DNA of 64,000 nt from Sulfolobales archaeon (GTDB lineage: Archaea > Thermoproteota > Thermoprotei_A > Sulfolobales > NBVN01), in the NCBI GenBank assembly GCA_038841535.1, contig JAWBTQ010000002.1:96001-160000 (forward strand), in the 5' to 3' direction. This document shows, in pieces, positions 26,969 through 43,164 of the stretch (its first letter is position 1; the number at the start of each line of letters is the position of its first letter). The notes beneath the pieces are model-generated. The model had not been told where the DNA came from, did no database searches, and saw only the letters and a list, made by a program, of their open reading frames with translations. Position numbers and translations under genes: made by a program.

Positions 26969-26992
26969 GGTTACGTAATCTTCCCTTTATTA
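26969..26992 (+). promoter_or_regulatory. GTTACGTAA palindromic site plus TATA box upstream of the GH42 operon
   Basis: GGTTACGTAATC at 26969-26980, TTTATTA at 26986; the same site precedes two other locus promoters. Confidence 0.7.
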
Positions 26993-27023: not shown

Positions 27024-29183
27024 ATGGCGCACACGCATTCTCGGACTAGGGTTTACCCCCTAGGTTTATGGTATGGAGTCGGCAAAGTTACACCAGTCTT
27101 CGATGCGTCTAAAATCCGCGATGACCTGAGGAAGGTCAAGGATCTGGGTGTAGGCTTTGTTAGACTTTGGGTAAACTGGAGAGATATCGAGCCGAGACCG
27201 AGTGCGTACGCATTTGGAGAGTTGAAGGAGGCTATGGACGAGGCCGAGGAGATCGGGCTTTCCGTAGTAATCCAAGTCTACTTAGAGTTTGGACCAGATT
27301 GGCTTCCGAAACTCTACCCCGATGCCGTTTTTATTTCTGAGTCCGACCTAAAGCTGTATCACCAAGGTAGCCCAGGAGTTTGCCTAGACCACCCCTCTGT
27401 GAGAAGGCATGCTGAGAGGTTTCTTGTGGAGCTAGCTGGGTTCGCAAAGAAGTACAGCAGCCTATATGCTTGGGACGTATGGAGCGAACCACAGATAGTC
27501 CAATGGGTGTTCAGGCTTGGGTTTCCTAAGTCAGTCTACTGCTACTGTGAGCACAGCGTGAAGAGGTTTAGGGAATGGCTTAAGGAGGTCTACGTAAGTA
27601 TCGACGCGCTAAACGCGGCATGGCATAGGTCCTTCAATTCGTTTGAGGAGGTTCAGCCACCTAGGTTTGTAGTCCTTCACTATGCTAAGGAGAACATTGA
27701 CTGGGTAGAGTTTAACGTCTGGAAGCTCAAGGAGGATCTGCGTTGGAGGGTCGAGACTATCAAGAAAGTCGACCGGGAGCATCTCGTAGCAAGTCACGCA
27801 GCTACGTCGTCAGTTCTATTGAACCCCCTATTTGGGCACCCAGACGACTGGGAAATGTCTAAAGTCGTAGACGTTTGGGGTACGTCTCTATACCCTAAGC
27901 ACGCTCACAGAGTCCCTGATCCAGCTGTAGATAGCTTCATTCTAACCTCAGTAAGGTCTTCTGCTGACGCATGGGGAAAGAGCTTTTGGATAGGGGAACT
28001 CCAGGGAGGCCAAGGAGTTGGGGGCCTAAAGATAGCGGACGTAGTACACCCAGAAGACATTAACGTATGGTTCTGGCAGTCCGTAGCCCACGGCTCTAAG
28101 GGAGCCTTCGTATACCACTCCTATCCAATGATGTGGGGTTACGAGTCTTCGGGATACGGTCTACTAGACCCCGCTGGCAATTTAACGAATAGAGCAAGGG
28201 CTTTAGCGTCTATATCAAACATAGTGAGAGAGTACGGAGACATGCTTGCAGAAGCTAGACCTTTGAAAGCTAAGTGCGCACTATTATATAATAAGCACTC
28301 GTACAGACTGCTGTGGGTTCTTCAGGAGGAGTCGGCAGCAGCATTCTCTAGGTCTCTCCTGGGTGTGTACAGAGTTCTATACAAGCATAACGTTCCTGTA
28401 GATGTGGTCTCCATAGAGCAGTTCATGAACGACCCGAGTAGCTATGTGCTACTGATGGCTCCCTTCTCGATAGCTGTTTCCAAAGAATTCTCTGGTGCTC
28501 TAGAGAGGTTTGTATCGAGCGGAGGTGTGCTTTTGGCGGATGCTAGATTTGGGTGGTTCAAGGAGGACGGCTGGATAGACGGAGAGATACCGTGCTACAA
28601 CCTCTCAAGAGTTCTCGGTGCAAGAGAGAAGTCCTGCAGAAGCTTAACTGAGTCGAAGGCTGTTATGAGGGTCGTGAACGAGGTAGTCCCAGGGCTCAAG
28701 TGTGGCGACATCGTGGGGATGTGGCACTATGCTGAAACCATGGAGTTATTAAGTGAGAACACTATCCCTGTAGCTGAAGTAGGTAGTGCAGAAACAGCTC
28801 TAACGATTAACAATTACGATAGGGGTTTCGCACTGTGGGTTGGCACATCCATAGGGTTAGCCTATGAGAACATGCGTGACCTAGGCATAGAGAAGCTTAT
28901 TAAGGGAGTTGTGGAGCTTGCTGGAATACGTCCACCCGCAATAGTGGATCCAGTAGGTGCTCTCGAAGTTAGAGTTCTTACTGTGGGAGGAGGAGGCGAG
29001 AGACTAGTGGTAATGATAAACCAAGGCTTAGAGGAGGTGAGAGCGAAAATAGCTTTCCCGGAGGACAAGTGGTTAGAGAAAATAAGAGACATAATAACGG
29101 GCAAGTCCTACGTGGTTAGAGGAGGTGAGCTCGAGCTGTCTGTGCCCCCTAGAGGTGTAATCGTTGGGTACTCAAGGCAGTAG
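27024..29183 (+). CDS. GH42-family glycoside hydrolase (beta-galactosidase-like)
   Basis: W..IEP, WDVWSEP acid/base Glu, YCYC, LNAAW, FWIGELQGG nucleophile, trimerisation and C-terminal domains. Confidence 0.88.
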   Translation: MAHTHSRTRVYPLGLWYGVGKVTPVFDASKIRDDLRKVKDLGVGFVRLWVNWRDIEPRPSAYAFGELKEAMDEAEEIGLSVVIQVYLEFGPDWLPKLYPDAVFISESDLKLYHQGSPGVCLDHPSVRRHAERFLVELAGFAKKYSSLYAWDVWSEPQIVQWVFRLGFPKSVYCYCEHSVKRFREWLKEVYVSIDALNAAWHRSFNSFEEVQPPRFVVLHYAKENIDWVEFNVWKLKEDLRWRVETIKKVDREHLVASHAATSSVLLNPLFGHPDDWEMSKVVDVWGTSLYPKHAHRVPDPAVDSFILTSVRSSADAWGKSFWIGELQGGQGVGGLKIADVVHPEDINVWFWQSVAHGSKGAFVYHSYPMMWGYESSGYGLLDPAGNLTNRARALASISNIVREYGDMLAEARPLKAKCALLYNKHSYRLLWVLQEESAAAFSRSLLGVYRVLYKHNVPVDVVSIEQFMNDPSSYVLLMAPFSIAVSKEFSGALERFVSSGGVLLADARFGWFKEDGWIDGEIPCYNLSRVLGAREKSCRSLTESKAVMRVVNEVVPGLKCGDIVGMWHYAETMELLSENTIPVAEVGSAETALTINNYDRGFALWVGTSIGLAYENMRDLGIEKLIKGVVELAGIRPPAIVDPVGALEVRVLTVGGGGERLVVMINQGLEEVRAKIAFPEDKWLEKIRDIITGKSYVVRGGELELSVPPRGVIVGYSRQ

Positions 29184-29970
29184 TGGAGCGAAAATCCGCG
29201 ACTTGCCCCAGGAGTGGTACGAAAGAGTGCTCGGACTGCTCGACTACATCGCTAAAACCCAGCGCAAAAATATTGAGAAAGCAGCCGAAATCGTCGCAGA
29301 CTCTATATTCAAGGGACATGTGTGTTTTCTGTTTGGGTCAGGTCATGCTGCTATACCAGTGATGGAGATTTTTCCTAGATATGGGTCGATGGTTGGGTTC
29401 GTGCCCATAGTAGACCTCCCTCTAATATCCTTCCTTAGGCTAGTGGGGGATATGGGCTATCCGCAGTTTGATTGCATAGAGAACTCGCCTGAGTATGGGC
29501 GCAGAATAGTTGAGAACTACGAGATTCACAGAGACGACTGCGCCATTGTCTTCTCTCATTCTGGTACTACGCCCGTCACCTTAGAGGTAGCACTACAGAT
29601 TAAGAGCAGGGGTTCTAAAGTGATTGGGATAACCTCGGTAGCTCATTCGTTGAGGGCTAGACCACGACATCCGTCTGGATTAAAGCTATTCGAGGTTGCT
29701 GATGTGGTTATAGATACAGGAGTACCACCGGGAGATGTTTCCATAGAGGTATTTAGCGGGGGAAAGCCTATCAAAGTAGGACCTCTCTCCACAATAGCGT
29801 TCGTGTTCGTAGCTAATTTTGTGCTCTTAAGCACCTATGAGCAATTGCTCAAAGCCGGTTACGACCCTATAACGCTGCCAGTTAGAGGTTTCGACTCAGA
29901 TGCCGACATCCTCATGAGGAAAGCCCTCAGTAAGTACAGAGAGCTATACTCTAAACACATCTCTAAGTAG
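29164..29970 (+). CDS. SIS-domain sugar-phosphate isomerase-like protein (UPF0309 type)
   Basis: FGSGHA, FSHSG, VIGITS..HS, KLFEVADVVIDTGVPPGD, GPLST. Confidence 0.85.
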   Translation: MGTQGSSGAKIRDLPQEWYERVLGLLDYIAKTQRKNIEKAAEIVADSIFKGHVCFLFGSGHAAIPVMEIFPRYGSMVGFVPIVDLPLISFLRLVGDMGYPQFDCIENSPEYGRRIVENYEIHRDDCAIVFSHSGTTPVTLEVALQIKSRGSKVIGITSVAHSLRARPRHPSGLKLFEVADVVIDTGVPPGDVSIEVFSGGKPIKVGPLSTIAFVFVANFVLLSTYEQLLKAGYDPITLPVRGFDSDADILMRKALSKYRELYSKHISK

Positions 29971-29978
29971 GGGATGGA

Positions 29979-30935
29979 ATGGTGTTGCGCAACGTCGTAT
30001 TGTCAATAGACGTTGGTGGAACTAAGATTGCGTACGCGTTTATCGACTCCGGAGGAGGAGTTCATGATTACGGTATCGTAAAAACTAGGAGAGCTGGGGG
30101 AAGGCAGGTTATCAACCAGCTCAGAGAGATCGTTAGATCCTGTCGCTACAAGAAGGTTGTTGGCGTGGGGGTGAGCGTGCCAGGCATAGTTAGAAACGGA
30201 TCGGTTACCTGGGCACCTAACATTAGGGAATGGAGGGACGTCCATTTAGCCGATCTGATAAGCAGGGATATCCCCGAGGGAGGCCTAATAGAGGTCGTAG
30301 ACGATAGGACGGCTAGCGCTCTGGGTGAGATGTGGCAGGGGGCGGCAAAGAGTCTATCAAATTTCATAGTGCTAGTCATAGGGACGGGAGTCGGTGCCGG
30401 CGTAGTTATTGACGGTAGGCCTGTCCATGGCTCAGCTGGTGTTTCGGGAGCTGTAGGTTGGTGGTTACTATCGCGAAGTCTTCCACATCGGAGTACCCGG
30501 AGAGGTTTTCTCGAAGAAGAGATAGGGGGATTAGCTCTCGATAGAATCGCCAGAAGGTACTCTTCATCAAGAACCTCAACAGGCTCTCCACTTCGCGAGC
30601 TATGCGAATTCGTCGATTCGACTTGCTTGTTTAGAGCTTACGACCTTGGGCACGATCTCGCAAAAAACACCCTAGAAAGGAAAGCAGTATTACTCGGGAT
30701 CCTCATAGCTAACTTACTGAGCCTGCTTAACCCCGAGGCCGTTATACTAAGTGGTAGCGTCGGAGTTGAGCTAGGTAAAAGGTTTATGCCGCTCATCAGG
30801 AGAGTAGTTGAGGCAGTAGCGCAACCGTACGCCACCAAGAGCTACCGCTTAGAGGTATCAAGCCTAGGTCACTTGTCCTGCTTATACGGCTCTGCCTACT
30901 TCGTATTGAAAAGAATGGGGAGCATAGGTAAGTAA
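29979..30935 (+). CDS. ROK family sugar kinase
   Basis: DVGGTKI, GVSVPG, ALGEMWQGA, GTGVGAG; no N-terminal HTH. Confidence 0.9.
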   Translation: MVLRNVVLSIDVGGTKIAYAFIDSGGGVHDYGIVKTRRAGGRQVINQLREIVRSCRYKKVVGVGVSVPGIVRNGSVTWAPNIREWRDVHLADLISRDIPEGGLIEVVDDRTASALGEMWQGAAKSLSNFIVLVIGTGVGAGVVIDGRPVHGSAGVSGAVGWWLLSRSLPHRSTRRGFLEEEIGGLALDRIARRYSSSRTSTGSPLRELCEFVDSTCLFRAYDLGHDLAKNTLERKAVLLGILIANLLSLLNPEAVILSGSVGVELGKRFMPLIRRVVEAVAQPYATKSYRLEVSSLGHLSCLYGSAYFVLKRMGSIGK

Positions 30936-30978
30936 TAAGACCACTTTTTTGTTCTGTTAGTTTCTAACTCGTGAGACT

Positions 30979-32193
30979 ATGCTGCTTGGAGTAGTTGAGG
31001 GGTTCTATGGGCCCGCCTGGGACTGGGTTGAGAGGATTAACATTATGGAGTTTCTGAGTAGGGTAGGTCTCAATGCCTACATATACGCACCTAAGTGGGA
31101 TCCTCGTCATAGGGATTGGTGGAGGATTCCATACGAACCTGTCTTTGCTGATAGACTAAGCATGCTATTAGACTCGGCTTCTAGGTACGGAATCAGAGTT
31201 GTTTTCGCCCTAAGCCCGGGCTTAGACATGGACTACTCGTCAGAGCACGATGTTAGATTGCTAGTAAAGAAGTTCTCTTGGGTTATGGAGCTGGGGGTTG
31301 AAGATTTAGCCGTGTTTTTAGACGATATCCCGCCGGTTCTTAGAGGAAAAGGGTTCAAGACTCTAGCAGAAGCTCAGTCTTCCTTAGTGAACAAGTTGCT
31401 TAGGGAGCTGAGACCTAAGTCGCTGGTGTTCTGCCCTACCTATTACCACAGTCTGCGGGAGGACTACATGAGAGAGATAGGCGATCTCGTTGATCCCGAG
31501 GTATACATAGTTTGGACTGGTATGTGGGTAGCCTCACACAAAATAGACGTAGGGGACTTAGAATCCGTGGCCAAGCTCTTAAAGAGAAAGCCGTTCATAT
31601 GGGATAACTACCCAGTTAACGACTACTTCACCGTTTACGGAATTACGAGGCTACACCTAGGGCCCCTAAAGAACAGACCTAAAGAGTTCACCAAATATAT
31701 CTCCGGCTACGCATCTAACCCCATGAATCAGTATGAAGCATCTAAGATACCTCTATACACTATCGCAGAAGCCTTACTAAGTACGTCATACGACCCCGAA
31801 AAGAGTTTATCGGACGCTATAGACAGCATACTCAATAAGAACTCTAGGTACTGGTTTAAGAGGTTTGTGGAGTTTAACCGAGCTAACTTTATGGACTTAA
31901 CGGAACGTACTATAACTAGAGAAAATGCTGACGAGGTGATCGAGCTAGTCAGAGAACTTCGTGAATCTATAGGAAACAAGAAGTTGGTTAGAGAAGTTGA
32001 CTCAGTGTTAAGCAAAATGGAGTCCATAGCCAGGTACTCTAAAAACGAGGTATCCTATCTAAGCTGGCGAGTTCAGACTGCAGGTGAGTACAGTCCCCCA
32101 ATAACAGCTGAGAGAATGTTGAAGGAGGTGTTCGGAGTAGTAGCCCGACTCACTCCTTGGTACAGTAAGGCCTACGTAAAGCCCGAGGTGTAG
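30979..32193 (+). CDS. GH84 beta-N-acetylglucosaminidase (O-GlcNAcase/NagJ family)
   Basis: GVVEGFYG.AW, YIYAPK.DP.HR..WR, ALSPG, FLDDI catalytic Asp-Asp, FCPT.Y, WTG, IWDNYPVND, SNPMNQ.EAS. Confidence 0.93.
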   Translation: MLLGVVEGFYGPAWDWVERINIMEFLSRVGLNAYIYAPKWDPRHRDWWRIPYEPVFADRLSMLLDSASRYGIRVVFALSPGLDMDYSSEHDVRLLVKKFSWVMELGVEDLAVFLDDIPPVLRGKGFKTLAEAQSSLVNKLLRELRPKSLVFCPTYYHSLREDYMREIGDLVDPEVYIVWTGMWVASHKIDVGDLESVAKLLKRKPFIWDNYPVNDYFTVYGITRLHLGPLKNRPKEFTKYISGYASNPMNQYEASKIPLYTIAEALLSTSYDPEKSLSDAIDSILNKNSRYWFKRFVEFNRANFMDLTERTITRENADEVIELVRELRESIGNKKLVREVDSVLSKMESIARYSKNEVSYLSWRVQTAGEYSPPITAERMLKEVFGVVARLTPWYSKAYVKPEV

Positions 32194-32196
32194 AAA

Positions 32197-33480
32197 GTGA
32201 TAATTAGGGCGTATAGGAGAGGTGATGAAGAGGAAGTCGTTGAGCTACTCAAGATGTGCTTTGATGACTTCAATAGGTGGGGTGTGTCAGCGGAGGACTG
32301 GCTTTCGTATGAGGAAGGAGACTACGGCTTTAAGATAGATAACGCTCTTGTTGCTGAAGTCAGTGGTAGATTGGTAGGACACCTTCACTTAGTGATACGG
32401 AATGCGTACATAGGTGAAGGTTCCTTTGATATCTGCGGAATAGCTAATGTTTCAACTCACCCGGACTTCCGAGGTAGGGGTATAGCTACCGCCCTCGTGA
32501 AGAGAGCTATAGAGGTGTGTAGAGAAATGGGTTTACCTGTAGTTTCACTACTTACCGGCTATGGAGGTGAGGGGTATCGCGTATATAGGTCCGTGGGTTT
32601 TTCGAACACGGCTTTTCTGAGAGCATACGTAGGTGCTCGAGATAGTGTCGAAAAGTTTTTAGAGAGTTATGGGAAGATCAGGCTAGAAGTTGAAGAAATA
32701 GGCTACGGGAACATCGATGAAGTAGCTAAGCTTCACGATACGTTACGGAGGAAAGTAAATCTTGTCATATCGCGTCCCAGAGACTACTGGGTCAGCAAGG
32801 TACTGAAGAGATTCTTTTTCTATAGCTTCTTTTACGATCGCTCCGAGGAAGCTATAAAGCTACTCTTCAGAGACTCCTCCGGTCCGGTGGGTTATTCTCT
32901 GGCTTTTAGTGGGCAACGCGCCTCGAGGAACTACTGGCAGAAAGATGCAGGAGTAGTACTTGAAGCTGTAGCTATCAACGAGAAATACTTGAAGAGCGTA
33001 ATCTCCGAGACCCTAAGGCGACTACTCGATAGTGGGGCGAAGTTGTTCAGGCTCTACGTGCCACCATTATACAGGCCTATATTACGCTATAGCTTTGAGG
33101 AGTTCAAGGGGGGTTTACTAATGGACTACGTAATCGACTTAAAGAAGCTTCTGAGCAGTATGAGGGATGAACTCTCGAGGAGAGCAGCTTCCGCAGAGCT
33201 TAGGGGCCCTATGGACATCAGCATAAGGAGTCCATATGGATGCGCAAATGTTAATGTAGTTGATTCTAATGTGGAGATAAGTAGTTCCTGTAAGTTCGAG
33301 AATGAAGTGGAGTTCACCAGAGATGGCATCGTTAAAACTATCTATGGAGTAAGCTCCATAGGCAAACTAGTAAATAAGGACCAGGTAATGAGAATAAACC
33401 TTAGCTCACAAGCTTTTAAAGCAGTAAATGCCCTCTTTCCGGCTAGACCAATATACATCCCAAGGATGGACCAGTGGTAG
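32197..33480 (+). CDS. Eis-like GNAT acetyltransferase (tandem GNAT + SCP2-like C-terminus)
   Basis: GIANVSTHPDFRGRGIA acetyl-CoA motif, YRSVGF, second GNAT repeat, C-terminal LFP...MDQW. Confidence 0.85.
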   Translation: MIIRAYRRGDEEEVVELLKMCFDDFNRWGVSAEDWLSYEEGDYGFKIDNALVAEVSGRLVGHLHLVIRNAYIGEGSFDICGIANVSTHPDFRGRGIATALVKRAIEVCREMGLPVVSLLTGYGGEGYRVYRSVGFSNTAFLRAYVGARDSVEKFLESYGKIRLEVEEIGYGNIDEVAKLHDTLRRKVNLVISRPRDYWVSKVLKRFFFYSFFYDRSEEAIKLLFRDSSGPVGYSLAFSGQRASRNYWQKDAGVVLEAVAINEKYLKSVISETLRRLLDSGAKLFRLYVPPLYRPILRYSFEEFKGGLLMDYVIDLKKLLSSMRDELSRRAASAELRGPMDISIRSPYGCANVNVVDSNVEISSSCKFENEVEFTRDGIVKTIYGVSSIGKLVNKDQVMRINLSSQAFKAVNALFPARPIYIPRMDQW

Positions 33481-33832: not shown

Positions 33833-33857
33833 GGTTACGTAACTCTGTGGTTTAAAT
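33833..33857 (+). promoter_or_regulatory. GTTACGTAAC palindromic site plus TATA box upstream of the ABC operon
   Basis: GGTTACGTAAC at 33833-33843, TTTAAAT at 33851. Confidence 0.7.
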
Positions 33858-33879
33858 GATTCTAGCGATCAACTCACGG

Positions 33880-35910
33880 GTGCTAACTACGCCTCTACAG
33901 AAGTGGGTGATTTATGTTATAGTTGTAGTAGTCATAGCTGCAGTTGCTGTCGGTATAGCAGCCCAGTTACTCCTTCCGCCACCAGCCGTTCAACCAACTC
34001 CCACACCTACCCCTACCGCAATTACCCCCGCAACAACACCGACTCCCACAACACCTCCAACAGTGACACCTACGACTACTCCTTTACCTACAACACCGAC
34101 TCCCACACCGACTCCTGGGGAGAAGGTAGTATACTTGTACGGTAGTTGGCCGCCCCCTGAGAACTATATTACTAACCCCCTGGTAGGTACCATAGGGATG
34201 CTTCACTACTATACCCACATGCCACTAGTGTTTCTAATACCCGCTGATAGAGCACCATTACCTGGGTTACTCGGTGAGTACCCTAAGCTCATTTCGCTCT
34301 TAGCTGATGCCTGGGTATTCAAAGAGTATCCAGGTTCGAATTTAACTATAGCGGAGGTAAAGCTTAAGAAAACTGGTTGGAGTGATGGTAATCCGCTAAC
34401 AGCTGAGGACGTTTTTATTAGTATAGTGTACTACGGATGCTTCTACAACTCATTTCCCGGCTACTATGAGGTAATTAATGAAACAGCTATAAGGAGGTAC
34501 TGGAACGCTACGGGCATTAGATTCGAAACACTCACCTCGTGGATGTGGTCTTGGTACGGGATTTGGGCATCAAGAGAATACTACAAAGTGGAGCCATTGT
34601 GGCCGATCTGTATAGAGCAGTACAGGCTACTAAAGGAGCGCTACTACCTAACAACAGTGGGGAAGCCTGTACCTAAGGAATTAACGGATAGACTTACTCT
34701 GCTCAATAAGTGGTTCAGGGGGAACCTAACGGAGATAGCTAAGAAGGTCCCAGCATACCTAGCTAATGGACCCTTCTATCCAGCTAAGATCACAGAGTCC
34801 CACATTATTTGGGAGAAGAACCCGTACTTCTGGAACACTAAAGGTATGGCAATAGATAGATGGGTGATGCTAAGCACTCCTGAGACTGCAGTCATAATAG
34901 AGAACATCGGTCGCGGAGCCGTTACGTGGTCGACGCTAACATCAATAGTGCCAGACATCGTTGACGCACTTAAAGCTATAAACAGAGACCTATTGGTGTA
35001 CCCACTAACTCACTATCGCATGGTCGGCATACTCTTCAATTTCCAGAGATACCCGATGAACGATACACACTTCCGTAGAGCGATCGCTTACCTTGTAAAT
35101 AAAGACGCCATTTTCCAAACTCTTCCCTTCTACGCTAAGGAGACCATACTAAACATAGGGCTACCGGAGGAGTTCTTGTGGAAATGGATCTCAAGCGACG
35201 ACTTAAAGTACTTCACAAGGTACACCTACGACCCCAAGAAGGCGGAAGAAGAACTGCTCGCCGGAGGCTTCAGAAAAGACCCTAGAACTGGTAAGTGGCT
35301 TCTACCGAACGGTACTCCCATATCCATTACCATAACGATTACCTCTGATCCCATGTATGTAATACCAGCTGAAGCTATTGCCGGGATGCTTAACAGCTTC
35401 GGAATCACGACGCAGATAAGTGTTGTTCCATCAGCTGTTTGGACGACACTCGTTCGGACCTACGCTACTACCTACGCCGTAGAGAGAAATTACGACATAA
35501 CCATCTGGATATCTAGCTTGATGTACGCTACTGCTCACCCGTACTGGACATGGTCCCACATACTCATGCTCGGATGGGGTGCTGGAGGAGCAATAGCTTT
35601 CCCGAACTGGTGGAACATACAGCATCCGTGGAAGAGCTGCACTAACGACGAAAACATATCTAGGTTGTTCACTATACTCTACAACAACCCTGGTACAGAC
35701 GTCGAGAAGTGCGCCATTAAGGCGTTCGCATGGGTCGTCAACGAATATGTGCCTGTCTTACATTTGTACGAATATGGTGTCTGGGTATTCATGAACAGTA
35801 AGGACATCAAGGGATGGCCCCCGGAGGAAGACCCGGTTTGGAGCGTAAGATTAATGGACGCTGGCTACTATCGAGCTCTCCTGCTACTCTCGATATATTA
35901 CCTGCGTTAA
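33880..35910 (+). CDS. ABC transporter substrate-binding protein, family 5 (Opp/Dpp, oligosaccharide-type)
   Basis: N-terminal TM, Pro/Thr linker, WSDG.PLTAEDV, GPF, FRRAIAYLVN, YDPKKAEEEL; the track ATG 33856 lies inside the TATA box, so GTG 33880 is preferred. Confidence 0.9.
   Translation: MLTTPLQKWVIYVIVVVVIAAVAVGIAAQLLLPPPAVQPTPTPTPTAITPATTPTPTTPPTVTPTTTPLPTTPTPTPTPGEKVVYLYGSWPPPENYITNPLVGTIGMLHYYTHMPLVFLIPADRAPLPGLLGEYPKLISLLADAWVFKEYPGSNLTIAEVKLKKTGWSDGNPLTAEDVFISIVYYGCFYNSFPGYYEVINETAIRRYWNATGIRFETLTSWMWSWYGIWASREYYKVEPLWPICIEQYRLLKERYYLTTVGKPVPKELTDRLTLLNKWFRGNLTEIAKKVPAYLANGPFYPAKITESHIIWEKNPYFWNTKGMAIDRWVMLSTPETAVIIENIGRGAVTWSTLTSIVPDIVDALKAINRDLLVYPLTHYRMVGILFNFQRYPMNDTHFRRAIAYLVNKDAIFQTLPFYAKETILNIGLPEEFLWKWISSDDLKYFTRYTYDPKKAEEELLAGGFRKDPRTGKWLLPNGTPISITITITSDPMYVIPAEAIAGMLNSFGITTQISVVPSAVWTTLVRTYATTYAVERNYDITIWISSLMYATAHPYWTWSHILMLGWGAGGAIAFPNWWNIQHPWKSCTNDENISRLFTILYNNPGTDVEKCAIKAFAWVVNEYVPVLHLYEYGVWVFMNSKDIKGWPPEEDPVWSVRLMDAGYYRALLLLSIYYLR
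33991..34116 (+). repeat. Pro/Thr-rich low-complexity linker (PTPTPT) coding repeat
   Basis: QPTPTPTPTAITPATTPTPTTPPTVTPTTTPLPTTPTPTPTP; ACACCGACTCCCACA repeated. Confidence 0.85.
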
Positions 35911-35933
35911 GATCAGTCTACAGGCTGGTGTAA

Positions 35934-36962
35934 ATGGAGTTAACGGGAGTTTTTCCGTTCATTAAGTTACTCTCGAAGAGGGTTTTATATGCGATTTTAA
36001 CAATTATGGTAGCCGTCTCGGTAACTTTCGTGGCTATAAGGTCTATGCCTGGAGATGTGCTTTACACGCTGGCAGTATCGCTAGCAGAAGAGCTGAGGAT
36101 CTCCGTAGAGGAGGCCAAGAAGATAGTGTTCTACATATACTATGGGATTGACGTCGAAGAACCGATCTACCTACAGTACCTTAAGTATGTCATTGGGTTA
36201 CTGCAGGGGAACCTAGGGTACTCGACATACTTCAAAAGACCCGTTACTTACGTTGTAGCCAGGGCGCTAGGCTGGACAGCGTTTACTCTTTCCGTGGGGA
36301 TCTCTCTGTCTTTCGCTATTGGGATACTGATAGGGATGCTGGCAGGTTTTAAGCGCGGAACTAAGTTTGACGCCATAGTATCTCTGACCTCGACAGTACT
36401 GTCGGCTATACCGGGATACGTAGTAGCGCTACTACTGTACATCATGCTATCTGCGCGACTAGGACTCCTACCAGCAAGAGGAGCCTACTCACCGCACGTA
36501 GAACCGGGACTAAACCTAGCGTTTATGATCGACGTACTCTACCACGCAGCTCTCCCAGTACTCACATACGTAGTGATAACTTTCTCTGGCTGGACGCTAC
36601 TCATAAGATCGAACGTGGCGAAGATACTGGAGGAGGACTTTCTCAAGTACGCTGAGGCGCGGGGAATTAGCAGGAGGAGAATAGTGACTACCTACATAGG
36701 TAGAAACTCCATACTGCCAATAGTGCCTCTCCTGGCTATAAGAGTGGGGAGCATGATTGGCGGCTCTACCCTCATAGAAACGATCTTCGCGTATCCCGGT
36801 ATGGGGTATTACCTATCTCTAGCTCTTAGCATTAGAGATTACGGTCTTCTCCAGGGCATATACTTTATGATGATAGTCGCAACTATAGTTGCGGTAATAG
36901 TGGTCGAGTTCCTCACCCCGTTAATAGATCCAAGAGTTCGACGCGAGGTAGTAGCAACATGA
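35934..36962 (+). CDS. ABC transporter permease (DppB/OppB type)
   Basis: MPGD, QY..Y..GLLQGNLG.S, EDF..YAEARG EAA loop, IETIFAYPGMG, DPRVR. Confidence 0.93.
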   Translation: MELTGVFPFIKLLSKRVLYAILTIMVAVSVTFVAIRSMPGDVLYTLAVSLAEELRISVEEAKKIVFYIYYGIDVEEPIYLQYLKYVIGLLQGNLGYSTYFKRPVTYVVARALGWTAFTLSVGISLSFAIGILIGMLAGFKRGTKFDAIVSLTSTVLSAIPGYVVALLLYIMLSARLGLLPARGAYSPHVEPGLNLAFMIDVLYHAALPVLTYVVITFSGWTLLIRSNVAKILEEDFLKYAEARGISRRRIVTTYIGRNSILPIVPLLAIRVGSMIGGSTLIETIFAYPGMGYYLSLALSIRDYGLLQGIYFMMIVATIVAVIVVEFLTPLIDPRVRREVVAT

Positions 36963-37846
36963 CTTCCTACAGGAGTTCTAAGTCGAGACTTAAGCTCATA
37001 TACTTAGACTTCGTGAGACCAGTAATCCTAAGCGGTAGAGGAGTCCTAGGTATCGCTATCATAGTCTCCATGATCTTTATGGCTACATTAGGGCCCGAGC
37101 TCATACCTCTAGATACGGGTGTTAAGCCGCAGATGAAGTGGTGTCAGCCCTCTCTTGAGCATCCGCTAGGGTGCGACTACCTCGGCCGCGACCTGTTCTC
37201 ACTGGTAGTTCACGGTTCGAGAGAGGTCTTCCTTATACCCTTCTGTGCTACTTTGATTGGTGTGGTCGTAGGGCTATCTATAGGTCTGTTAGCAGGTTAT
37301 ATTGGCGGGTTGGCTAGAAGAGCTCTAACCTCAGTAACTGACACGTGGTTAACAATACCGTCGTTTCCAGTAATATTTATATTAGCCTACGCTTTACCTA
37401 AGTCTCCGGTCTCCATAATACTTCTACTAACTCTCTTTAGCTGGCCCGGGCTAGCTAGAGCGGTAGCCGCTGAAGTATCCTCATTGAAGCGCAGAGACTA
37501 CATCGAGGCGTGCGTTAACCTAGGCCTTGGGAGGGGCTACATACTGTTCAGAGAGATAGGACCTCACATACTCCCATTTGTAGCAATCAACTTCGCCTCG
37601 GTTTTCGTCGCAAACATGACGTCTCTAATAGGCATAGTCCTCCTCGGGGTAGCCCCACTGAACCCAACTAATTGGGGCTACTTACTAAACCAGATGATAT
37701 TTACTTACAAGGGACTGCTCCTAGCTAATGCATCAGTAGTGATAGTGTTGATGATACTCATGTTGGTTTTTATAAAGCTGGGTGTAGTGTTCTTTGCTCA
37801 ATCCCTCGAAGAGGTCTTTAACCCAAGGTTGAGGAGGTATGAGTGA
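36959..37846 (+). CDS. ABC transporter permease (DppC/OppC type)
   Basis: PSLEHPLGCDYLGRD, YIEA...G, NPRLR. Confidence 0.93.
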   Translation: MTSYRSSKSRLKLIYLDFVRPVILSGRGVLGIAIIVSMIFMATLGPELIPLDTGVKPQMKWCQPSLEHPLGCDYLGRDLFSLVVHGSREVFLIPFCATLIGVVVGLSIGLLAGYIGGLARRALTSVTDTWLTIPSFPVIFILAYALPKSPVSIILLLTLFSWPGLARAVAAEVSSLKRRDYIEACVNLGLGRGYILFREIGPHILPFVAINFASVFVANMTSLIGIVLLGVAPLNPTNWGYLLNQMIFTYKGLLLANASVVIVLMILMLVFIKLGVVFFAQSLEEVFNPRLRRYE

Positions 37847-38846
37847 AAAACTCGATAAGAACCAGAAGCTGGTTATCCGTGACCTGAGAATGGAGTACCT
37901 AGTGAGAGAAGGGACCGTAAAAGCGGTAAACGGAGTCAACCTCACTATACCTGAGGGGAGGATTACCGCTATCGTGGGCGAGAGCGGCTCCGGGAAAACC
38001 TCTCTGGTTGAGACCTTTCTTAAAATTTTACCTAAAAACGCGAGAATAAGGTCCGGTAAGGCCCTTCTCAAGCTCTCCAACGGAACAGCTGTAGACCTGA
38101 TAGAAGCGAGCGATAGCTTAATGAGAAAGCTAAGAGGGAGAGTCGTGGGATATATACCTCAAGGAGCGCAAAACTCTTTAAACCCTGTCTTAACCATCGA
38201 GCAGCACTTCCTCGAAACCCTCAGGGAGCATGGGACTCACTCTAAGGAGGCTATCGAGGAGAGAGTTCGCGCAATGCTTTCTCTCGTTAGGCTAGACCCT
38301 GAGGTCGTCTTGAAGAAGTACCCTCATGAGCTAAGTGGAGGCATGAAGCAGAGAGTTGTGATAGCATTGACTATGTTACTCCAACCGGAACTAGTAGTTC
38401 TAGACGAGCCAACTTCGGCTTTAGACATCTTCTCTCAAAGGGTTCTGCTGAACATACTCTACAAGATCCAGTCCACTTATAAGAATACCATGGTTTTGAT
38501 CACACACGATATCCCGATAGTATCAGAGCTAACCGATAGGGTGGCGGTTCTCTACGCAGGAGCTATAGTAGAGTCCGCAGATACGTACGAGGTATTCAAG
38601 GAGCCTATACACCCCTATACCTCTATGCTTATATCTGCCATACCTTCGGTAGTAGACGTCTACCTAAAGAGGGTGCCTAAGCCGGTACCTGGAGAGCCCC
38701 CCAGTCTTCTAAATCCACCACCAGGCTGCAGATTCCATCCTAGATGTCCTCACGCTTTTGAGAAATGCAGGCTTAAGGAGCCTCCTACGGTAGAAGTGCA
38801 CTCAGGTCACTTCGTTAGTTGCTGGCTGTACGCCGAGGGTGTGTAG
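37839..38846 (+). CDS. ABC transporter ATP-binding protein (DppD/OppD type)
   Basis: GESGSGKT, YPHELSGGMKQR, LDEPTSALD, HPYT, CRFHPRC. Confidence 0.95.
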   Translation: MSEKLDKNQKLVIRDLRMEYLVREGTVKAVNGVNLTIPEGRITAIVGESGSGKTSLVETFLKILPKNARIRSGKALLKLSNGTAVDLIEASDSLMRKLRGRVVGYIPQGAQNSLNPVLTIEQHFLETLREHGTHSKEAIEERVRAMLSLVRLDPEVVLKKYPHELSGGMKQRVVIALTMLLQPELVVLDEPTSALDIFSQRVLLNILYKIQSTYKNTMVLITHDIPIVSELTDRVAVLYAGAIVESADTYEVFKEPIHPYTSMLISAIPSVVDVYLKRVPKPVPGEPPSLLNPPPGCRFHPRCPHAFEKCRLKEPPTVEVHSGHFVSCWLYAEGV

Positions 38847-38848
38847 AG

Positions 38849-39883
38849 ATGAAGAGGGTTGTCGCAGTAGAGAAGGTAAGTAAGACCTACTCCAGAGGGT
38901 TATTTAAGAAGAGGCTTATCAGTGCAGTGCAGAGCGCTTCTCTCGAGGTATCTAGCGGTGAGTTAATTAGTATCGTTGGTGAGAGCGGCTCCGGAAAGAC
39001 TACTCTGGGAAAGTTGATGACTGGCTTAGTCCTTCCTAGTAGCGGGAGGCTAATCTGGAGAGACGTGGACGTAATTAAGAACGGAAGAATAGTCAATAGA
39101 GAGTTCTACTCTTCGAATAGACATAGATACGTATACGTCCATCAAGACCCGTATAGTGCTCTAAATCCTTCTAAGAACGTATGGGACACTCTCAACCCGG
39201 TGATCAGTAAGTACAAGAAGCACTTAGGAACATCGGATAAGTATAAAACAGTGATAGAGCTCCTAGAGGAGGTAGGACTAGTTCCAGCAGATTACTTCAT
39301 CGATAAGTATCCTCACCACCTCTCTGGAGGTATGAGGCAGAGACTTGCTCTAGCGAGAGCTCTGGCAGCTGATCCTCACTTCATAGTGGCAGACGAAATA
39401 GTGAGCATGGTAGACCCGTCAATAAGGATATCGCTAGTGAACCTCCTCAAGGATATAGTGAAGGCGCGCAATATCTCGGTAGTGTTCATATCTCACGACC
39501 TCGGAATATCTATTTATGCCGCTGAAAACAACTTCATGTACGTGATGCTTAACGGGGTGGTCGTAGAGTACGGTCCTGCCTACGAGATAGCTTACTCCCC
39601 CGAACATCCGTATACAAGAGCCCTAATATCTAATACATCCGTTCCACTACCCTCACGAGAGAAGCGTGTGAGAGAGCTAGATGGCGTTGCGGTCGAAGAC
39701 AGTAAACCCAGGCCAAACACACTGTGCCCATTTGCTTCTCTATGCCCGTTTGTTGATTCAGAGTGCTCTTCTTTTGAGCTTGGGTTTTACTTAAAAGCAG
39801 GTGCTAAGCACTTCTCAGCGTGTTTAAAGACTGGAAAGCTACCTAAGTGGAAGCCCAGCTGGCTCCAAACCCTATCTGGGTAG
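38849..39883 (+). CDS. ABC transporter ATP-binding protein (DppF/OppF type)
   Basis: GESGSGKT, YPHHLSGGMRQR, ADEIVSMVD, HPYT; start set at MKRVV. Confidence 0.94.
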   Translation: MKRVVAVEKVSKTYSRGLFKKRLISAVQSASLEVSSGELISIVGESGSGKTTLGKLMTGLVLPSSGRLIWRDVDVIKNGRIVNREFYSSNRHRYVYVHQDPYSALNPSKNVWDTLNPVISKYKKHLGTSDKYKTVIELLEEVGLVPADYFIDKYPHHLSGGMRQRLALARALAADPHFIVADEIVSMVDPSIRISLVNLLKDIVKARNISVVFISHDLGISIYAAENNFMYVMLNGVVVEYGPAYEIAYSPEHPYTRALISNTSVPLPSREKRVRELDGVAVEDSKPRPNTLCPFASLCPFVDSECSSFELGFYLKAGAKHFSACLKTGKLPKWKPSWLQTLSG

Positions 39884-39888
39884 AGCAG

Positions 39889-40089
39889 ATGAGAGCACAC
39901 CCAATTATTCTAGTCGACCTTCTAGCATTAGCCGTAGTCACATTAGTACTTTCCGCTGTAGCTCTAGCAATACTACAGCCATCTGATGAAGCATATCTGC
40001 CGGCACTCTCAGCCTTATTTATTTCTTTAGTCCTCGTCTTTGTAGCCCTAGTCGGGTTTAGGAGAGCTATTAAAGTAGAGAAAACGTAG
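39889..40089 (+). CDS. Small two-TM membrane protein
   Basis: ATG 5 nt after the ATPase stop; two hydrophobic helices and a basic tail. Confidence 0.6.
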   Translation: MRAHPIILVDLLALAVVTLVLSAVALAILQPSDEAYLPALSALFISLVLVFVALVGFRRAIKVEKT

Positions 40090-40093
40090 AGTC

Positions 40094-40118
40094 GTTACGT
40101 AATCCTTTCCCTTTAAAC
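40094..40118 (+). promoter_or_regulatory. GTTACGTAA palindromic site plus TATA box upstream of the tri-domain hydrolase
   Basis: GTTACGTAATC at 40094-40104, TTTAAAC at 40112, ATG at 40136. Confidence 0.7.
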
Positions 40119-40135: not shown

Positions 40136-42805
40136 ATGGGGGAAATATTGAGAACTATTTATATCGTAATCCTGACTATAGTAGTGGTCGCGGCTATAGT
40201 CACCCCCACAGTTTTCCGGGTTCTTAAGCCTGAGACGTCGGAAACATCTACACCTATAGAAACTACGGCAGTAGCTTTCACTCTAGTACAGCTACCGCTT
40301 AGAAAAAGACCATTCGTGTGGACCTGGATCTACAGCACGAAATCCAGCGAAGTCGCCGAGCTCCTGAGCAGATTCGGAGGTCGCGCGATAGATGTGGTCT
40401 CACCTGATTGGTACTATCTTACCGAGGACTTGAGTCTAGGTTTATACTACGAGAGAGGGGCGGAAGACCCAGGTTTTGTGAAACTTAGTAAAGACTCAGG
40501 AATCTTGATAGTCCCGATGGTTGTTTCTTCTAAAGGAGATAGAGTAAAGAACCTAATAACGAGTCGGGAAGCTATCGAGAGGTTCTCCAGGCAACTCGTA
40601 GAGACAGCAGCTAGAATGGGATACTCCGGCTTTAATATAGACTTCGAGGTAAGCCTCCCACTCTACTCTAGAGAGTTCGCTGAATTCATAGACTATCTTG
40701 CTAAGAGGCTTCATGAGGCTGGACTTATATTAACTGTAGCAGTGCCCGCCAAGAGGGCTGAGATCCGTAGCGACTATCTAATGACTTACGACTACCAACT
40801 TCTAGCAAAAACAGACGCTGACTACATTATGATCATGGCATACGACTACTACGAGATAGTGGGACCTAAGCCGGTCGCCCCCATGCCTTGGGTAGAGGAC
40901 TGTATTGAGTACTCCCTAAGGTTCTTCCCTAGAGAAAAACTCGTTCTCGGCGTCCCTAATTACGGAAAAGTTTGGGACGACAAGGGCAAGTTAGTGAAGT
41001 GGTTACTGCACCAGGATTATCTGTCCATGGTATCCCAGGGAGAGCGCTTTGTAGTAGACCTAAGCTCGAGAGAGCTTATGGCTAAAACAGCCGAGGGAGT
41101 AGCATACTACGTTGATGGAGAGATGGCGTACTACCGAGCAAAGCTCGCACTCTCCCATCGCTTAGCCGGTGTAGCAATATGGAGACTCGACGGGGGAGAC
41201 CTCGGCTTATGGGAGCTTCTCGAGGATTTCCGTCTCTCGCATGCGGGACCCCCCGACTACCCTCTAGCTAAGTGGATAGAGGCCTACTCAGGTAATTATC
41301 AAAAGTCAAACAGAACGGAAGTCAACTGGATAGTGGTCCACGTCACCGAGGGCTCGACTCAGTCTGCTATTAACTGGTTCCTAGACCCACGATCCGGAGT
41401 TTCAGCCCATTATATAATCTCGTTGGGAGGATCGGTCTATCAAATGGTTATGGAGAAAGACATCGCTTGGCATGCGGGTAACAAGCAGTACAACCTACTG
41501 TCTATAGGTATAGAGCATGAGGGCTTCGTTAAGGCAAGGATGTTTACGGAATCTCAATACAGATCGTCCGCCCGCTTAATAGCATATCTAGCCTATAAGT
41601 ATGGCATATCATTAGATCACGTAGTCGGCATAGCTCCTCCGGATCCCGCGGAAAGTAAAGGGATAATAGGGCACGACCAAGTTCCTGACCCGAGGAATCA
41701 GACGATAGGTGGAGGAATCTCCCACCACACTGATCCTGGACCATACTGGGATTGGCGTTTATACATGGAGCTCGCGAGGAAGTACTACGAAGCCTTAGTA
41801 AGTGGAAATTATGAGAAGGCCTTTATCGCAGTGTGGTGGGGTGTTTACTCGGATAAGTGGAGCATGAATAGAGATGTCTGGCTTAAGCAGGTTAATGAAG
41901 CTCTAGCTAAGCTCAAGAGAGCTGGGGTTGACGCTGTGTTCTTTCTAGTTAAGGACCCCTGGGGCTACGTATATTACAATAGCTCCTACGCACCTCTGAA
42001 CCCGAAGTATTCTTGGGACGTTCTCGGCGATGTAGTGAAGGTCGCTAAAAAATATGGAATAGAGGTTTACGTATATATAAACGCTCTATCCGAGGGAGAG
42101 ACCAGTCCCGGGTTCTATTTACAGCAGAACCCCCACTTCGCTCTCTATGATGAGTACGGAAACATGCTCGGTTGGGTAGACCCCTACTGTGAAGAATACG
42201 TGCAGAGGCTCCTCGACATAGTAGCTGAGATATTGACTAAGTACCCCGAGGTCAGAGGGGTACAACTAGATAGAATAAGAGCTCCTCAGAGCAACGTCAT
42301 CGGAAAATGCTCTTCGGAGGGTTTCTGGAAGCAATATGGTAAGAACCCCAAAGACGATATACGACTCTACCAGAAGTTTCTAGTTGACGGTATAACTAGC
42401 ATAGTCAAGAGAGTTTCTGCTTTAGCTAAGAGCGCTAGGCCCGGCATTCACGTGTCTGCCGCAGTATTCCCGAGTCCAACCGCCGTTCATACCGTACTCC
42501 AGGATTGGATTTATTGGGTTAACGAGGGTGTGGTCGATGCTGTCGCAACAATGACCTACACAATAGACTTTACAACGTTTAAGAGTTACGTGACATCACA
42601 GCTCGGAACTATTAAAGACCCTAGTAAGCTCCTTATAGGTGTAGGAGCGTGGCAGCTATTAGACGAAATGCTGGTATCCCAACTGAGTTATGTGATAGAG
42701 GAGCTTAATCTCAAGGGAGCTGTTCTGTTTAACTTAGACAGCCTAATAGACAAGAACCTGGCCGAAACCCTTACCAAGTTCAGACTTACATACTATTGCC
42801 GATAG
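40136..42805 (+). CDS. Membrane-anchored tri-domain cell-wall hydrolase: GH18 (SleL/YaaH-like) + N-acetylmuramoyl-L-alanine amidase (Amidase_2) + GHL10/DUF187 glycoside hydrolase
   Basis: N-terminal TM and S/T linker; GH18 GFNIDFE, IMAYD, KLVLGVPNYG, GVAIWRL; amidase IVVHVTEG, VSAHYII, IAWHAG, SIGIEHEG, IIGH, HTDPG; GHL10 GIEVY, GVQLDRIR, VSAAVF, QDWIYW..G.VD...MTY. Confidence 0.9.
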   Translation: MGEILRTIYIVILTIVVVAAIVTPTVFRVLKPETSETSTPIETTAVAFTLVQLPLRKRPFVWTWIYSTKSSEVAELLSRFGGRAIDVVSPDWYYLTEDLSLGLYYERGAEDPGFVKLSKDSGILIVPMVVSSKGDRVKNLITSREAIERFSRQLVETAARMGYSGFNIDFEVSLPLYSREFAEFIDYLAKRLHEAGLILTVAVPAKRAEIRSDYLMTYDYQLLAKTDADYIMIMAYDYYEIVGPKPVAPMPWVEDCIEYSLRFFPREKLVLGVPNYGKVWDDKGKLVKWLLHQDYLSMVSQGERFVVDLSSRELMAKTAEGVAYYVDGEMAYYRAKLALSHRLAGVAIWRLDGGDLGLWELLEDFRLSHAGPPDYPLAKWIEAYSGNYQKSNRTEVNWIVVHVTEGSTQSAINWFLDPRSGVSAHYIISLGGSVYQMVMEKDIAWHAGNKQYNLLSIGIEHEGFVKARMFTESQYRSSARLIAYLAYKYGISLDHVVGIAPPDPAESKGIIGHDQVPDPRNQTIGGGISHHTDPGPYWDWRLYMELARKYYEALVSGNYEKAFIAVWWGVYSDKWSMNRDVWLKQVNEALAKLKRAGVDAVFFLVKDPWGYVYYNSSYAPLNPKYSWDVLGDVVKVAKKYGIEVYVYINALSEGETSPGFYLQQNPHFALYDEYGNMLGWVDPYCEEYVQRLLDIVAEILTKYPEVRGVQLDRIRAPQSNVIGKCSSEGFWKQYGKNPKDDIRLYQKFLVDGITSIVKRVSALAKSARPGIHVSAAVFPSPTAVHTVLQDWIYWVNEGVVDAVATMTYTIDFTTFKSYVTSQLGTIKDPSKLLIGVGAWQLLDEMLVSQLSYVIEELNLKGAVLFNLDSLIDKNLAETLTKFRLTYYCR

Positions 42806-42874
42806 AGCTTAAACTTAATACAGTACAACGAGTTCTATTTCGGTTATTTGCTGCGGATTTAAGTGGCCTAATCG

Positions 42875-43135
42875 AGTTGGGGTTCAGCTCTGATATAGGT
42901 TTGTATTGGTTGATTTTATTGCCTCATCTCTTACTCCCGCATCCTGCTCGGGTCCTCATCGGGCTCTGGGGCGTCCGGGGAATCCTAGGCCGTATCACAT
43001 CTCGGTTTATCCTCGGGAGAGCCCGCACTTCATCTACGTAGCTCTCGACCACTCATCGAGTAACCTTCGCACATCGATCCACGCCGAGACACTCATAAAC
43101 GTCTTTGTTGCATCCATCAAGCAACATAAACCAAC
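42875..43135 (-). mobile_element. Degenerate IS200/IS605 (TnpB)-derived non-autonomous relic
   Basis: GC-rich non-coding stretch whose minus strand resembles, from memory, the 3' region of crenarchaeal tnpB elements; shares an 18/20-nt motif with the relic at 44278. Confidence 0.4.
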
Positions 43136-43164
43136 ACGAAACTAGAAACAGTCACTTGAGGAAC

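Follow-up and report, generated by a model that had tools for sequence, protein, structure and literature searches.

A membrane-anchored protein with GH18, Amidase_2 and GHL10-like domains at the end of a predicted import and amino-sugar catabolism locus of a Sulfolobales archaeon

The window analysed in this work, a whole stretch of 64,000 nt from contig JAWBTQ010000002.1 (assembly GCA_038841535.1, positions 96,001 to 160,000), belongs to an archaeon of the GTDB order Sulfolobales and carries, at 40136..42805 on the plus strand, a gene coding for an 889-aa protein in which an N-terminal anchor and a linker are followed by a GH18, an Amidase_2 and a GHL10-like domain. It stands last in a conserved locus, and its product, hereafter called the tri-domain protein, is probably a cell-surface depolymerase of bacterial peptidoglycan fragments and the outer arm of a nutrient-scavenging locus. 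This reading is carried by the families of the three domains, the catalytic residues found in two of them, the fold of the third, the gene neighbourhood, the promoter motif and the phyletic coupling of the genes; what the enzymes act on and in which order, what the transporter carries and that the third domain is catalytic are things we infer.

According to the proposed mechanism, the N-terminus would tether the protein to the archaeal membrane, the Amidase_2 domain would cleave the bond between N-acetylmuramic acid (MurNAc) and L-Ala, freeing the stem peptides and leaving bare glycan, the SleL-type GH18 domain would cleave the bonds between N-acetylglucosamine (GlcNAc) and MurNAc (GlcNAc-beta-1,4-MurNAc) of soluble fragments, and the GHL10-like domain would bind and probably cut the same glycan by means of a remodelled active site. 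The products would be imported by the adjacent Opp-type ATP-binding cassette (ABC) transporter and split by the cytoplasmic GH84 and GH42-like enzymes, the ROK kinase would phosphorylate the amino sugars, and a SIS protein related to NagS and MurQ would process the phosphorylated amino sugars together with NagA. The link to peptidoglycan is drawn because the same type of GH18 domain is found joined to a Peptidase_S13 domain and because amidase and GHL10 domains of the types present here are paired elsewhere as two-domain proteins or adjacent genes.

The tri-domain gene is a single uninterrupted open reading frame (ORF) whose boundaries are exactly 40136..42805 (+), and all three domains of its product exceed the curated cut-offs in a Pfam scan. 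The fusion is not an assembly artefact, since a 1,329-nt hot-spring contig from a run of a different study (X11) covers 40852-42180, including both domain junctions, with 0 differences. The GH18, Amidase_2 and GHL10 families have one occurrence each in the 1.56-Mb host genome, all in this ORF; the genome is 84% complete, and the genome-wide negatives given here and below apply to that fraction. A preliminary description of this DNA, made from the letters alone, had proposed three peptidoglycan-active-type domains in one membrane-anchored archaeal protein. The three Pfam matches, each to a family that has peptidoglycan-active members, and the N-terminal anchor bear it out, as do the assignment of the host to Sulfolobales and the closest named relatives, which are MAGs (metagenome-assembled genomes) of Sulfolobales, Desulfurococcales and Thermoproteota; the nucleotide ranges it gave for the three domains agree with the Pfam ranges, and the motifs it named were located at residues 167-171 (NIDFE), H402 (VVHVT), H513 (IIGH), D533 (HTDPG) and E460/E462 (GIEHEG).

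The first ~30 residues (40136..40225, +) form a predicted transmembrane anchor or uncleaved signal. They contain the sole hydrophobic segment of the protein, Kyte-Doolittle windows of 19 residues scoring above 1.6 beginning only at residues 1-14; residues 2-21 are a helix in the predicted model, and the position of the anchor is kept across orthologues in an alignment of 10 full-length sequences. The anchor is followed by a low-complexity linker rich in Thr, Ser and Pro (40226..40309, +; residues ~31-58, alignment columns 30-110), the length of which differs among the orthologues in the same alignment and reaches ~60-80 residues in some. The full-length model has a mean predicted local distance difference test score (pLDDT) of 81.5, with confident GH18 and GHL10 barrels, low-confidence amidase loops and a disordered linker stretch with pLDDT below 50 across residues 17-56. 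In a related strain represented in run X13, three nucleotides (ACA) are inserted after position 40255, which fits a Thr-rich stalk of variable length.

The GH18 domain, a (beta/alpha)8 barrel of the YaaH/SleL/YdhD type, is encoded at 40310..41233 (+; residues ~59-366), with the Glyco_hydro_18 (PF00704) match covering residues 140-352 at 66.4 bits (cut-off 29.6). SleL/YaaH and YdhD of Bacillus (4s3j, 4s3k, 3cz8) are among its best matches in both sequence and structure. The PDB sequence matches include 5jh8 (6e-20), YdhD 3cz8 (7e-17) and YaaH/SleL 4s3k and 4s3j, and a Foldseek search of the domain, in keeping with the SleL-type relationship put forward in the preliminary description, returned 5jh8 with E = 3e-20 and TM(target) 0.84 and SleL with E = 4.5e-20, at identities of 15-16% to SleL, 21% to YdhD and 25% to 5jh8. 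Cycad and insect chitinases are far weaker in the PDB sequence list (E = 4e-5 and worse).

The full GH18 motif is D-x-x-D-x-D-x-E, with D-x-E at the end of strand 4. The catalytic pair D169/E171 is present here within GFNIDFE, so the catalytic Glu had been placed correctly from the letters, and the two Asp positions upstream are occupied by S/G and N, giving a reduced motif with D-x-E only that is shared by YdhD and 5jh8. Eight of the 10 orthologues keep the pair intact, the exceptions being P0009 (NIVLE) and P0010 (NIDLK); the genome G017, which harbors a P0010-type protein with the degenerate motif, carries a second GH18 gene with an intact one. Unlike the Bacillus GH18 enzymes of the spore cortex, the tri-domain protein gave no match to LysM repeats of the SleL/YaaH cortex-lytic type at E <= 1, and its context is a catabolic locus and not sporulation. 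SleL is reported to carry LysM domains (PMC4004799), and a published table gives SleL/YaaH as a glucosaminidase of family GH18 that 'cleaves small fragments' (PMC10653849). By analogy with these enzymes, the GH18 domain would act as an N-acetylglucosaminidase on peptidoglycan fragments. We regard P0122 as an independent sign that murein is the target of this GH18 clade: this 941-aa metagenome protein joins a GH18 domain of the same type, with 49% identity and an intact NIDFE-type motif, to a Peptidase_S13 domain, and S13 D-Ala-D-Ala carboxypeptidases act on murein stem peptides. The contig of P0122 measures 12,512 nt, as does that of P0009, and the two proteins may come from one contig.

The middle domain (41255..41803, +; residues ~374-556) is of the Amidase_2 family, i.e. 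that of MurNAc-L-Ala amidases. The PF01510 match, at 104.8 bits against a cut-off of 26, spans residues 394-536 and profile positions 3-131 of 131, in line with its earlier assignment to this family. The residues H402, H513, D533 and E460/E462 are invariant in 10/10 full-length orthologues, and these are the two His, the Asp and the Glu previously picked out as a Zn site; H402, H513 and D533 are proposed here as the Zn ligands and E460 as the catalytic residue. In the PDB alignments with AmpDh2 and AmpD, D533 falls on AmpD D164 and E460 on AmpD E116, as counted from the printed alignment, and we take H34, H154 and D164 to be the Zn triad of AmpD and E116 its catalytic residue. The assignment of H513 was made by its GH motif because an insertion of ~10 residues comes after it. 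The position of AmpD K162, where a Lys is important in AmpD and T7 lysozyme, is occupied by His531. This is a trait of the subfamily, since a His stands immediately before TDPG in 133 of the 135 retrieved subfamily proteins with both motifs, including the bacterial amidases P0026 and P0043. Among the matches listed, the nearest amidase relatives outside the fusion family come from an Aenigmatarchaeota MAG (55%) and from Dormibacterota, Armatimonadota and actinomycetes (40-49%).

The C-terminal domain (41813..42802, +; residues ~560-889) is a GHL10-like TIM barrel of a subfamily with the signature 'Q-x-D-R-x-R'. It matches GHL10 (PF02638) over residues 584-816 with 65 bits (cut-off 27.9) and the related GHL6 with 36.4 bits (cut-off 35). 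Modelled alone, it reaches a pLDDT of 94 and a predicted template modelling score of 0.91, and its top structural match among 48,161 chains is Cwp19 of Clostridioides difficile (Z 34.5, root-mean-square deviation 2.5 Å, 309 residues), which is also matched in a search of the PDB with a profile of the domain (E = 1.5e-26). The second structural match is the PgaB/BpsB hydrolase domain acting on poly-N-acetylglucosamine (PNAG), with Z 28.3. Cwp19 and DigH (YddW) of E. coli are characterised GHL10 enzymes that cleave the glycan of peptidoglycan: the former is reported to lyse M. luteus and to release 1,6-anhydro-muropeptides from peptidoglycan (PMC5765458, PMC6016235), and the latter is described as a hydrolase specific for denuded glycan, with its bond specificity undetermined, which works alongside amidases at the E. 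coli septum just as an amidase accompanies the GHL10-like domain here (PMC12288456). Cwp19 and the GHL10-like domain have the same fold and conserve W567, N649, D712, S774, Y808 and F865, and both are found to have a Gly at strand 7, where clan GH-A enzymes place the nucleophile (PMC5765458). Residues D712, R713, R715, N649, S774, Y808, G835 and F865 are invariant. That the pocket residues are strongly conserved and that some members are exported as separate proteins speaks for a functional site; as stand-alone proteins, members of the D-R-x-R subfamily occur in Nitrososphaerota, Thermoprotei and Planctomycetota MAGs.

The locus lies upstream of the tri-domain gene with all its genes on the plus strand. 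According to Pfam/NCBIfam and PDB searches, the latter uninformative for the GNAT protein, it begins with a GH42-like gene (27024-29183) and a UPF0309-type SIS_2 gene (29164-29970), which are followed by genes for a ROK kinase (29979-30935), a GH84 beta-N-acetylglucosaminidase (30979-32193) and an Eis-like GNAT protein (32197-33480). The catabolic enzymes encoded at 27024..33480 are presumably cytoplasmic. Next comes an Opp/Dpp-type ABC importer (33856..39883, +) consisting, according to Pfam, of an SBP_bac_5 binding protein, two permeases and two ATPases carrying a C-terminal oligo_HPY region. The second ATPase gene is followed, ahead of the tri-domain gene, by a small ORF coding for 80 aa of hydrophobic character (39847..40089, +), which has no Pfam family, is kept in G151, a genome of the same genus (59% over 64 aa), and in the metagenome locus L108 (46% over 69 aa), and may encode an accessory membrane subunit. 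No immunity, secretion or toxin-type genes and no GT2 synthase were found among the genes of the locus. All 18 of the 18 PDB sequence matches of the GH42-like protein are GH42-type beta-galactosidases or their relatives, with 5gsm not among them, so that the PDB matches do not confirm the possibility, also considered, of a Thermococcus GlmA-type exo-glucosaminidase. The SIS protein matches UPF0309/SCO4393 at E = 1.5e-18, and SCO4393 is reported to be NagS, a GlcNAc-6P dehydratase related to MurQ (PMC12680351). A NagA equivalog (TIGR00221; 316 bits, cut-off 225.65) is encoded ~33 kb downstream on the same contig, at C2:171601-172731.

This arrangement was observed in 4 loci. In G151 the locus is collinear at 65% identity, with GH84 not found within the 32 kb searched; in G017, which belongs to another family (locus L001), it is rearranged yet adjacent at 44% identity, and in L108 it is collinear as far as the contig extends. 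When 201 genomes of the order were sampled, the GH42-like gene and the SIS gene had close orthologues only in three, all of which bear the fusion, these genomes being related and not independent samples.

The genes are also connected by a promoter motif. The composite TTACGTAA-N6-11-TTTA[AT][AT] occurs three times in the 1.56-Mb genome, both strands considered, and all three occurrences are at this locus, 18-32 nt upstream of the starts of the GH42-like, binding-protein and tri-domain genes. In the promoter region of the tri-domain gene (40095..40117, +), the TTACGTAA palindrome at 40095-40102 is followed after 9 nt by a TTTAAA TATA-like box which ends 18 nt before the ATG; the palindromes of the other two promoters are located at 26971-26978 (GH42-like) and 33835-33842 (binding protein). 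It is only the composite of palindrome and TATA-like box that is specific to the locus, whereas TTACGTAA alone is common: the genome has 57 copies and the window 4, versus 1.23 expected, with the count of 4 reached in 3 of 100 shuffles. The palindrome is retained in G151 at two of the three positions, before the substrate-binding protein gene and before the tri-domain gene (~40 nt upstream of the latter), and in G017 there is none at the tri-domain gene. With regard to the binding protein, the palindrome and the TATA-like box at 33835-33880 overlap the listed ATG at 33856, and because of this overlap its true start is probably 8 codons downstream, where the first start after the box yields a 676-aa protein. 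An XRE-type regulator gene at 43165-43884 (-) is not proposed as the regulator of the locus, having no counterpart in the G151 or G017 loci.

No match to the peptidoglycan synthase domains PF00912 and PF00905 was found in the genome, so the tri-domain enzyme is not an autolysin, and since the host makes no peptidoglycan the locus would serve foraging and not recycling. Its closest known analogue, by comparison of gene content, is the MurNAc recycling operon murQ-murR-murP-amiE-nagZ-namZ of B. subtilis, which is likewise described as one co-regulated locus of extracellular hydrolases, an importer and cytoplasmic amino-sugar enzymes, and in which three hydrolases are reported to be required jointly to digest murein, the peptides being stripped and the GlcNAc-MurNAc backbone split (PMC8054146). 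In contrast to that operon as described there, the three activities are here fused and membrane-anchored, the families are GH18, Amidase_2 and GHL10-like instead of GH3, AmiE and GH171, and uptake is of the Opp ABC type and not by a phosphotransferase system. A MurQ equivalog is also missing here, with a SIS protein of the UPF0309/NagS type in its place.

The window DNA, all or part of it, occurs in hot springs metagenome runs (15 rows from 8 studies), 10 of the rows being possible sources; runs X14 to X17 contain almost none of the sampled words and were left aside. It is argued from a survey of geothermal sites that the local heterotrophs live largely on peptidoglycan necromass (PMC10437873). 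The question whether archaea feed on bacteria or their remains is made testable in hot-spring Thermoproteota by this locus, as it offers a defined surface enzyme, an importer and cytoplasmic enzymes under one promoter motif. Thermostability of the tri-domain enzyme is plausible from the habitat, and an ectodomain that indeed works in the heat would supply thermostable modules for murein degradation. The locus also poses two enzymological puzzles, namely a GHL10 subfamily without the proposed catalytic Asp and a UPF0309 SIS protein in the position expected for MurQ.

Only a few lineages of Thermoproteota have the full fusion. A word-indexed search gave nine full-length homologues with 44-91% identity and the same Pfam content, the named ones being Sulfolobales archaeon MAGs. 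A HMMER search against 1.84 billion representatives clustered at 50% identity gave 13,372 matches at E <= 0.001, and among the best 150 of them two clusters (P0006 and P0010) match over the whole length with the GH18, Amidase_2 and GHL10 architecture. Among the 201 sampled genomes of the order, nine match the tri-domain protein, and the fusion is present in three, G000 (this genome), G151 and G017, being absent from two of the three other genomes of the same genus; the remaining matches are stand-alone GH18 genes at 7 places in 7 genomes. Two scans of collections seeded on the amidase motifs gave one full-length locus among the best 80 for genomes and, among the matches listed, one incomplete locus, L108, for metagenomes; the long JGI contigs that encode P0003, P0004, P0006 and P0009 were not among the loci retrieved. 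In L108, at ~6117, the tri-domain orthologue is split into two overlapping tBLASTn pieces meeting at 6117/6118, which suggests a frameshift or a sequencing error.

Related architectures include genuine two-domain proteins with Amidase_2 and GHL10 domains and N-terminal anchors of their own (P0012, P0013, P0015 and P0126, from Thermoproteota MAGs), and in the metagenome contig L109 the amidase and GHL10 modules are encoded by adjacent divergent genes. Two other candidates were rejected: P0011 as a distinct GH18 and Amidase_2 architecture, the protein running past the contig end, and the three-stretch matches P0128, P0171 and P0234, which are triple-Amidase_2 proteins (the P0128 cluster includes a Bryobacteraceae MAG) and not this fusion. 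The 7,857-nt metagenome locus L115 carries three consecutive genes on one strand, for a GH18 protein that has Ig-like domains, for a permease of amino acids and for an Amidase_2 protein, and is another uptake-linked pairing of GH18 and Amidase_2. Literature searches and the main text of a study on archaeal antibacterial peptidoglycan hydrolases (PMC12352652), its supplementary files being outside the search, gave no description of this architecture or locus.

Several observations weigh against the proposed role in peptidoglycan scavenging. At the end of strand 4 of the GHL10-like domain, D-R-x-R is present here and in 10/10 aligned subfamily members in place of the D-D-Y of Cwp19 and DigH: relative to Cwp19, where Asp196 of D195-D196-Y197 is proposed as catalytic (PMC5765458), D712 is retained, D196 is replaced by R713 and Y197 by I714, giving D-R-I-R. 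The N-P-Y-R loop with Arg132 of Cwp19 is replaced by N-x-L-x-E, the residue being acidic in 9 of 10 members, and Gln77 and Gln295 are not kept. The changes on the R713 and E653 sides look like a swapped charge pair, and judging from these residues the third domain may be a binder that does not cut, or may work by a different mechanism. Thus the analogy with DigH drawn in the preliminary description stands as far as the GHL10 profile and the Cwp19 fold are concerned but does not extend to the active site, and cutting of denuded strands is something we infer, because an invariant Arg713 takes the place of the Asp of Cwp19 and DigH. One GHL10 protein, DogH, is reported to be active on starch (PMC9967864).

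The same side of the balance holds the Pfam scan of the tri-domain protein, which found no LysM, SH3 or PG_binding domain, and P0235, a fusion of a GH18 domain with a deacetylase and a GT2 synthase. In the locus, the GH18, GH84, GH42-like, ROK and NagA proteins are equally suited to chitin or other GlcNAc oligomers, and a PDB search places the binding protein no nearer to dipeptide-binding than to mannoside-binding proteins. In the genome, the best match to the MurQ equivalog (TIGR00274) has 31.5 bits versus a cut-off of 302, no NagB or PIG-L deacetylase was found, and no S13 peptidase was found by tBLASTn with P0122, LD-carboxypeptidase and D-amino-acid enzymes not having been searched. As for expression, contigs from the X13 RNA library, of a strain 90-99% alike, cover 24 of 30 locus bins, including part of the tri-domain gene, which is only a hint since DNA may occur in such libraries.

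A bolder form of the scavenging proposal would have the locus encode a complete non-canonical archaeal pathway for peptidoglycan, with a tri-catalytic enzyme, a D-R-x-R GHL10 domain in which Arg713/Arg715 together with Glu653 would recognise the lactyl carboxylates of the stripped glycan and which would cut it unlike Cwp19 and DigH, and the NagS-type SIS protein acting as the MurNAc-6-phosphate etherase. We regard this full form as possible but doubtful.

A serious rival, since most of the cytoplasmic genes would serve both substrates and a GHL10 protein has been reported on starch, is that the locus is directed at a different polymer of N-acetylhexosamines, for instance chitin, an exopolysaccharide resembling PNAG or the chitobiose cores of N-glycans, with the amidase serving as a binding module or acting on another amide bond. 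GH18 is mostly a family of chitinases and endo-N-acetylglucosaminidases, and the tri-domain protein has a weak GH85 match (E = 0.002, below the cut-off); GH84, the ROK kinase, NagA and the SIS enzyme are the set needed for the catabolism of GlcNAc oligomers, for which the missing MurQ equivalog, the deacetylase and synthase partners in P0235 and the second rank of PgaB/BpsB among the structural matches of the GHL10-like domain would be in keeping. We nevertheless consider this explanation unlikely, as the catalytic residues of the amidase are invariant in 10/10 orthologues, which is unexpected for a mere binding module, the GH18 domain is nearer to the YdhD/SleL types (~1e-17 to 1e-20) than to chitinases (4e-5, weaker), in P0122 a GH18 domain of this type shares one protein with a DD-carboxypeptidase domain, the amidase and GHL10 types stay paired in fusion, two-domain and adjacent-gene forms, and the locus is devoid of a GT2 synthase.

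Lower still do we place the idea, raised in the preliminary description, of an antibacterial weapon lysing living bacteria on contact, with any nutrition following the killing. An amidase with two glycosidase-type domains would hit both the peptide links and the glycan, and the linker, ~60-80 residues long in some orthologues, could allow the catalytic part to reach outward, but the enzyme is predicted to be membrane-anchored and not to diffuse, and the murein of Gram-negative bacteria is shielded by the outer membrane. Haloarchaeal peptidoglycan hydrolases that kill bacteria are documented, and they resemble the present case in that murein-free archaea encode murein hydrolases, but they are described as secreted to the supernatant, unlike the tri-domain protein (PMC12352652). 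The main text of that study contains no mention of Amidase_2, GHL10, Glyco_hydro_18, Sulfolobales or Thermoproteota, its supplements being where such proteins may be listed, and its Discussion asks whether bacteria are 'the resource' (PMC12352652). Furthermore, SleL-type GH18 enzymes are listed as attacking small fragments and not intact walls (PMC10653849), and nothing resembling immunity, secretion or toxin genes is seen nearby. Nutrition is favoured over killing because of the membrane anchor, the absence of a cell-wall-binding module from the Pfam scan, and the location of the gene in an import-and-catabolism locus with which it shares the promoter motif, and a role as a weapon is accordingly quite improbable.

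Housekeeping, i.e. trimming or recycling of the archaeon's own surface glycoconjugates, would suit an enzyme anchored at the archaeal surface and the stand-alone GH18 relatives at 7 places in the order, but it is very improbable given that the patchy distribution of the fusion among the sampled genomes points to an accessory trait, that peptidoglycan synthase domains were not found and that we know of no MurNAc-peptide-like polymer in Thermoproteota.

Two further observations concern the surroundings of the locus. The NagA gene lies in a segment outside the window (C2:170628-174943; L188 4628-8943) which also codes for an AbrB/MazE-type protein, a PF00144 serine hydrolase with the beta-lactamase fold and a second SIS_2 paralogue, the latter with 39% identity to the SIS protein of the locus and with a copy of TTACGTAA 91 nt upstream of the start of the SIS match. 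The PF00144 protein could, as we assume by analogy, be a D-stereospecific peptidase or an AmiE-like muropeptide amidase. Just downstream of the tri-domain gene there is no tRNA at 42700-43200, and the sequence 42879-42980 is one of ~30 genome copies of a dispersed ~100-nt repeat with 82-97% identity, which may be an element similar to a miniature inverted-repeat transposable element. In one DNA run, the bin with this repeat has 307x depth versus ~23x in its neighbours, with loose ends at 42879 and 42932.

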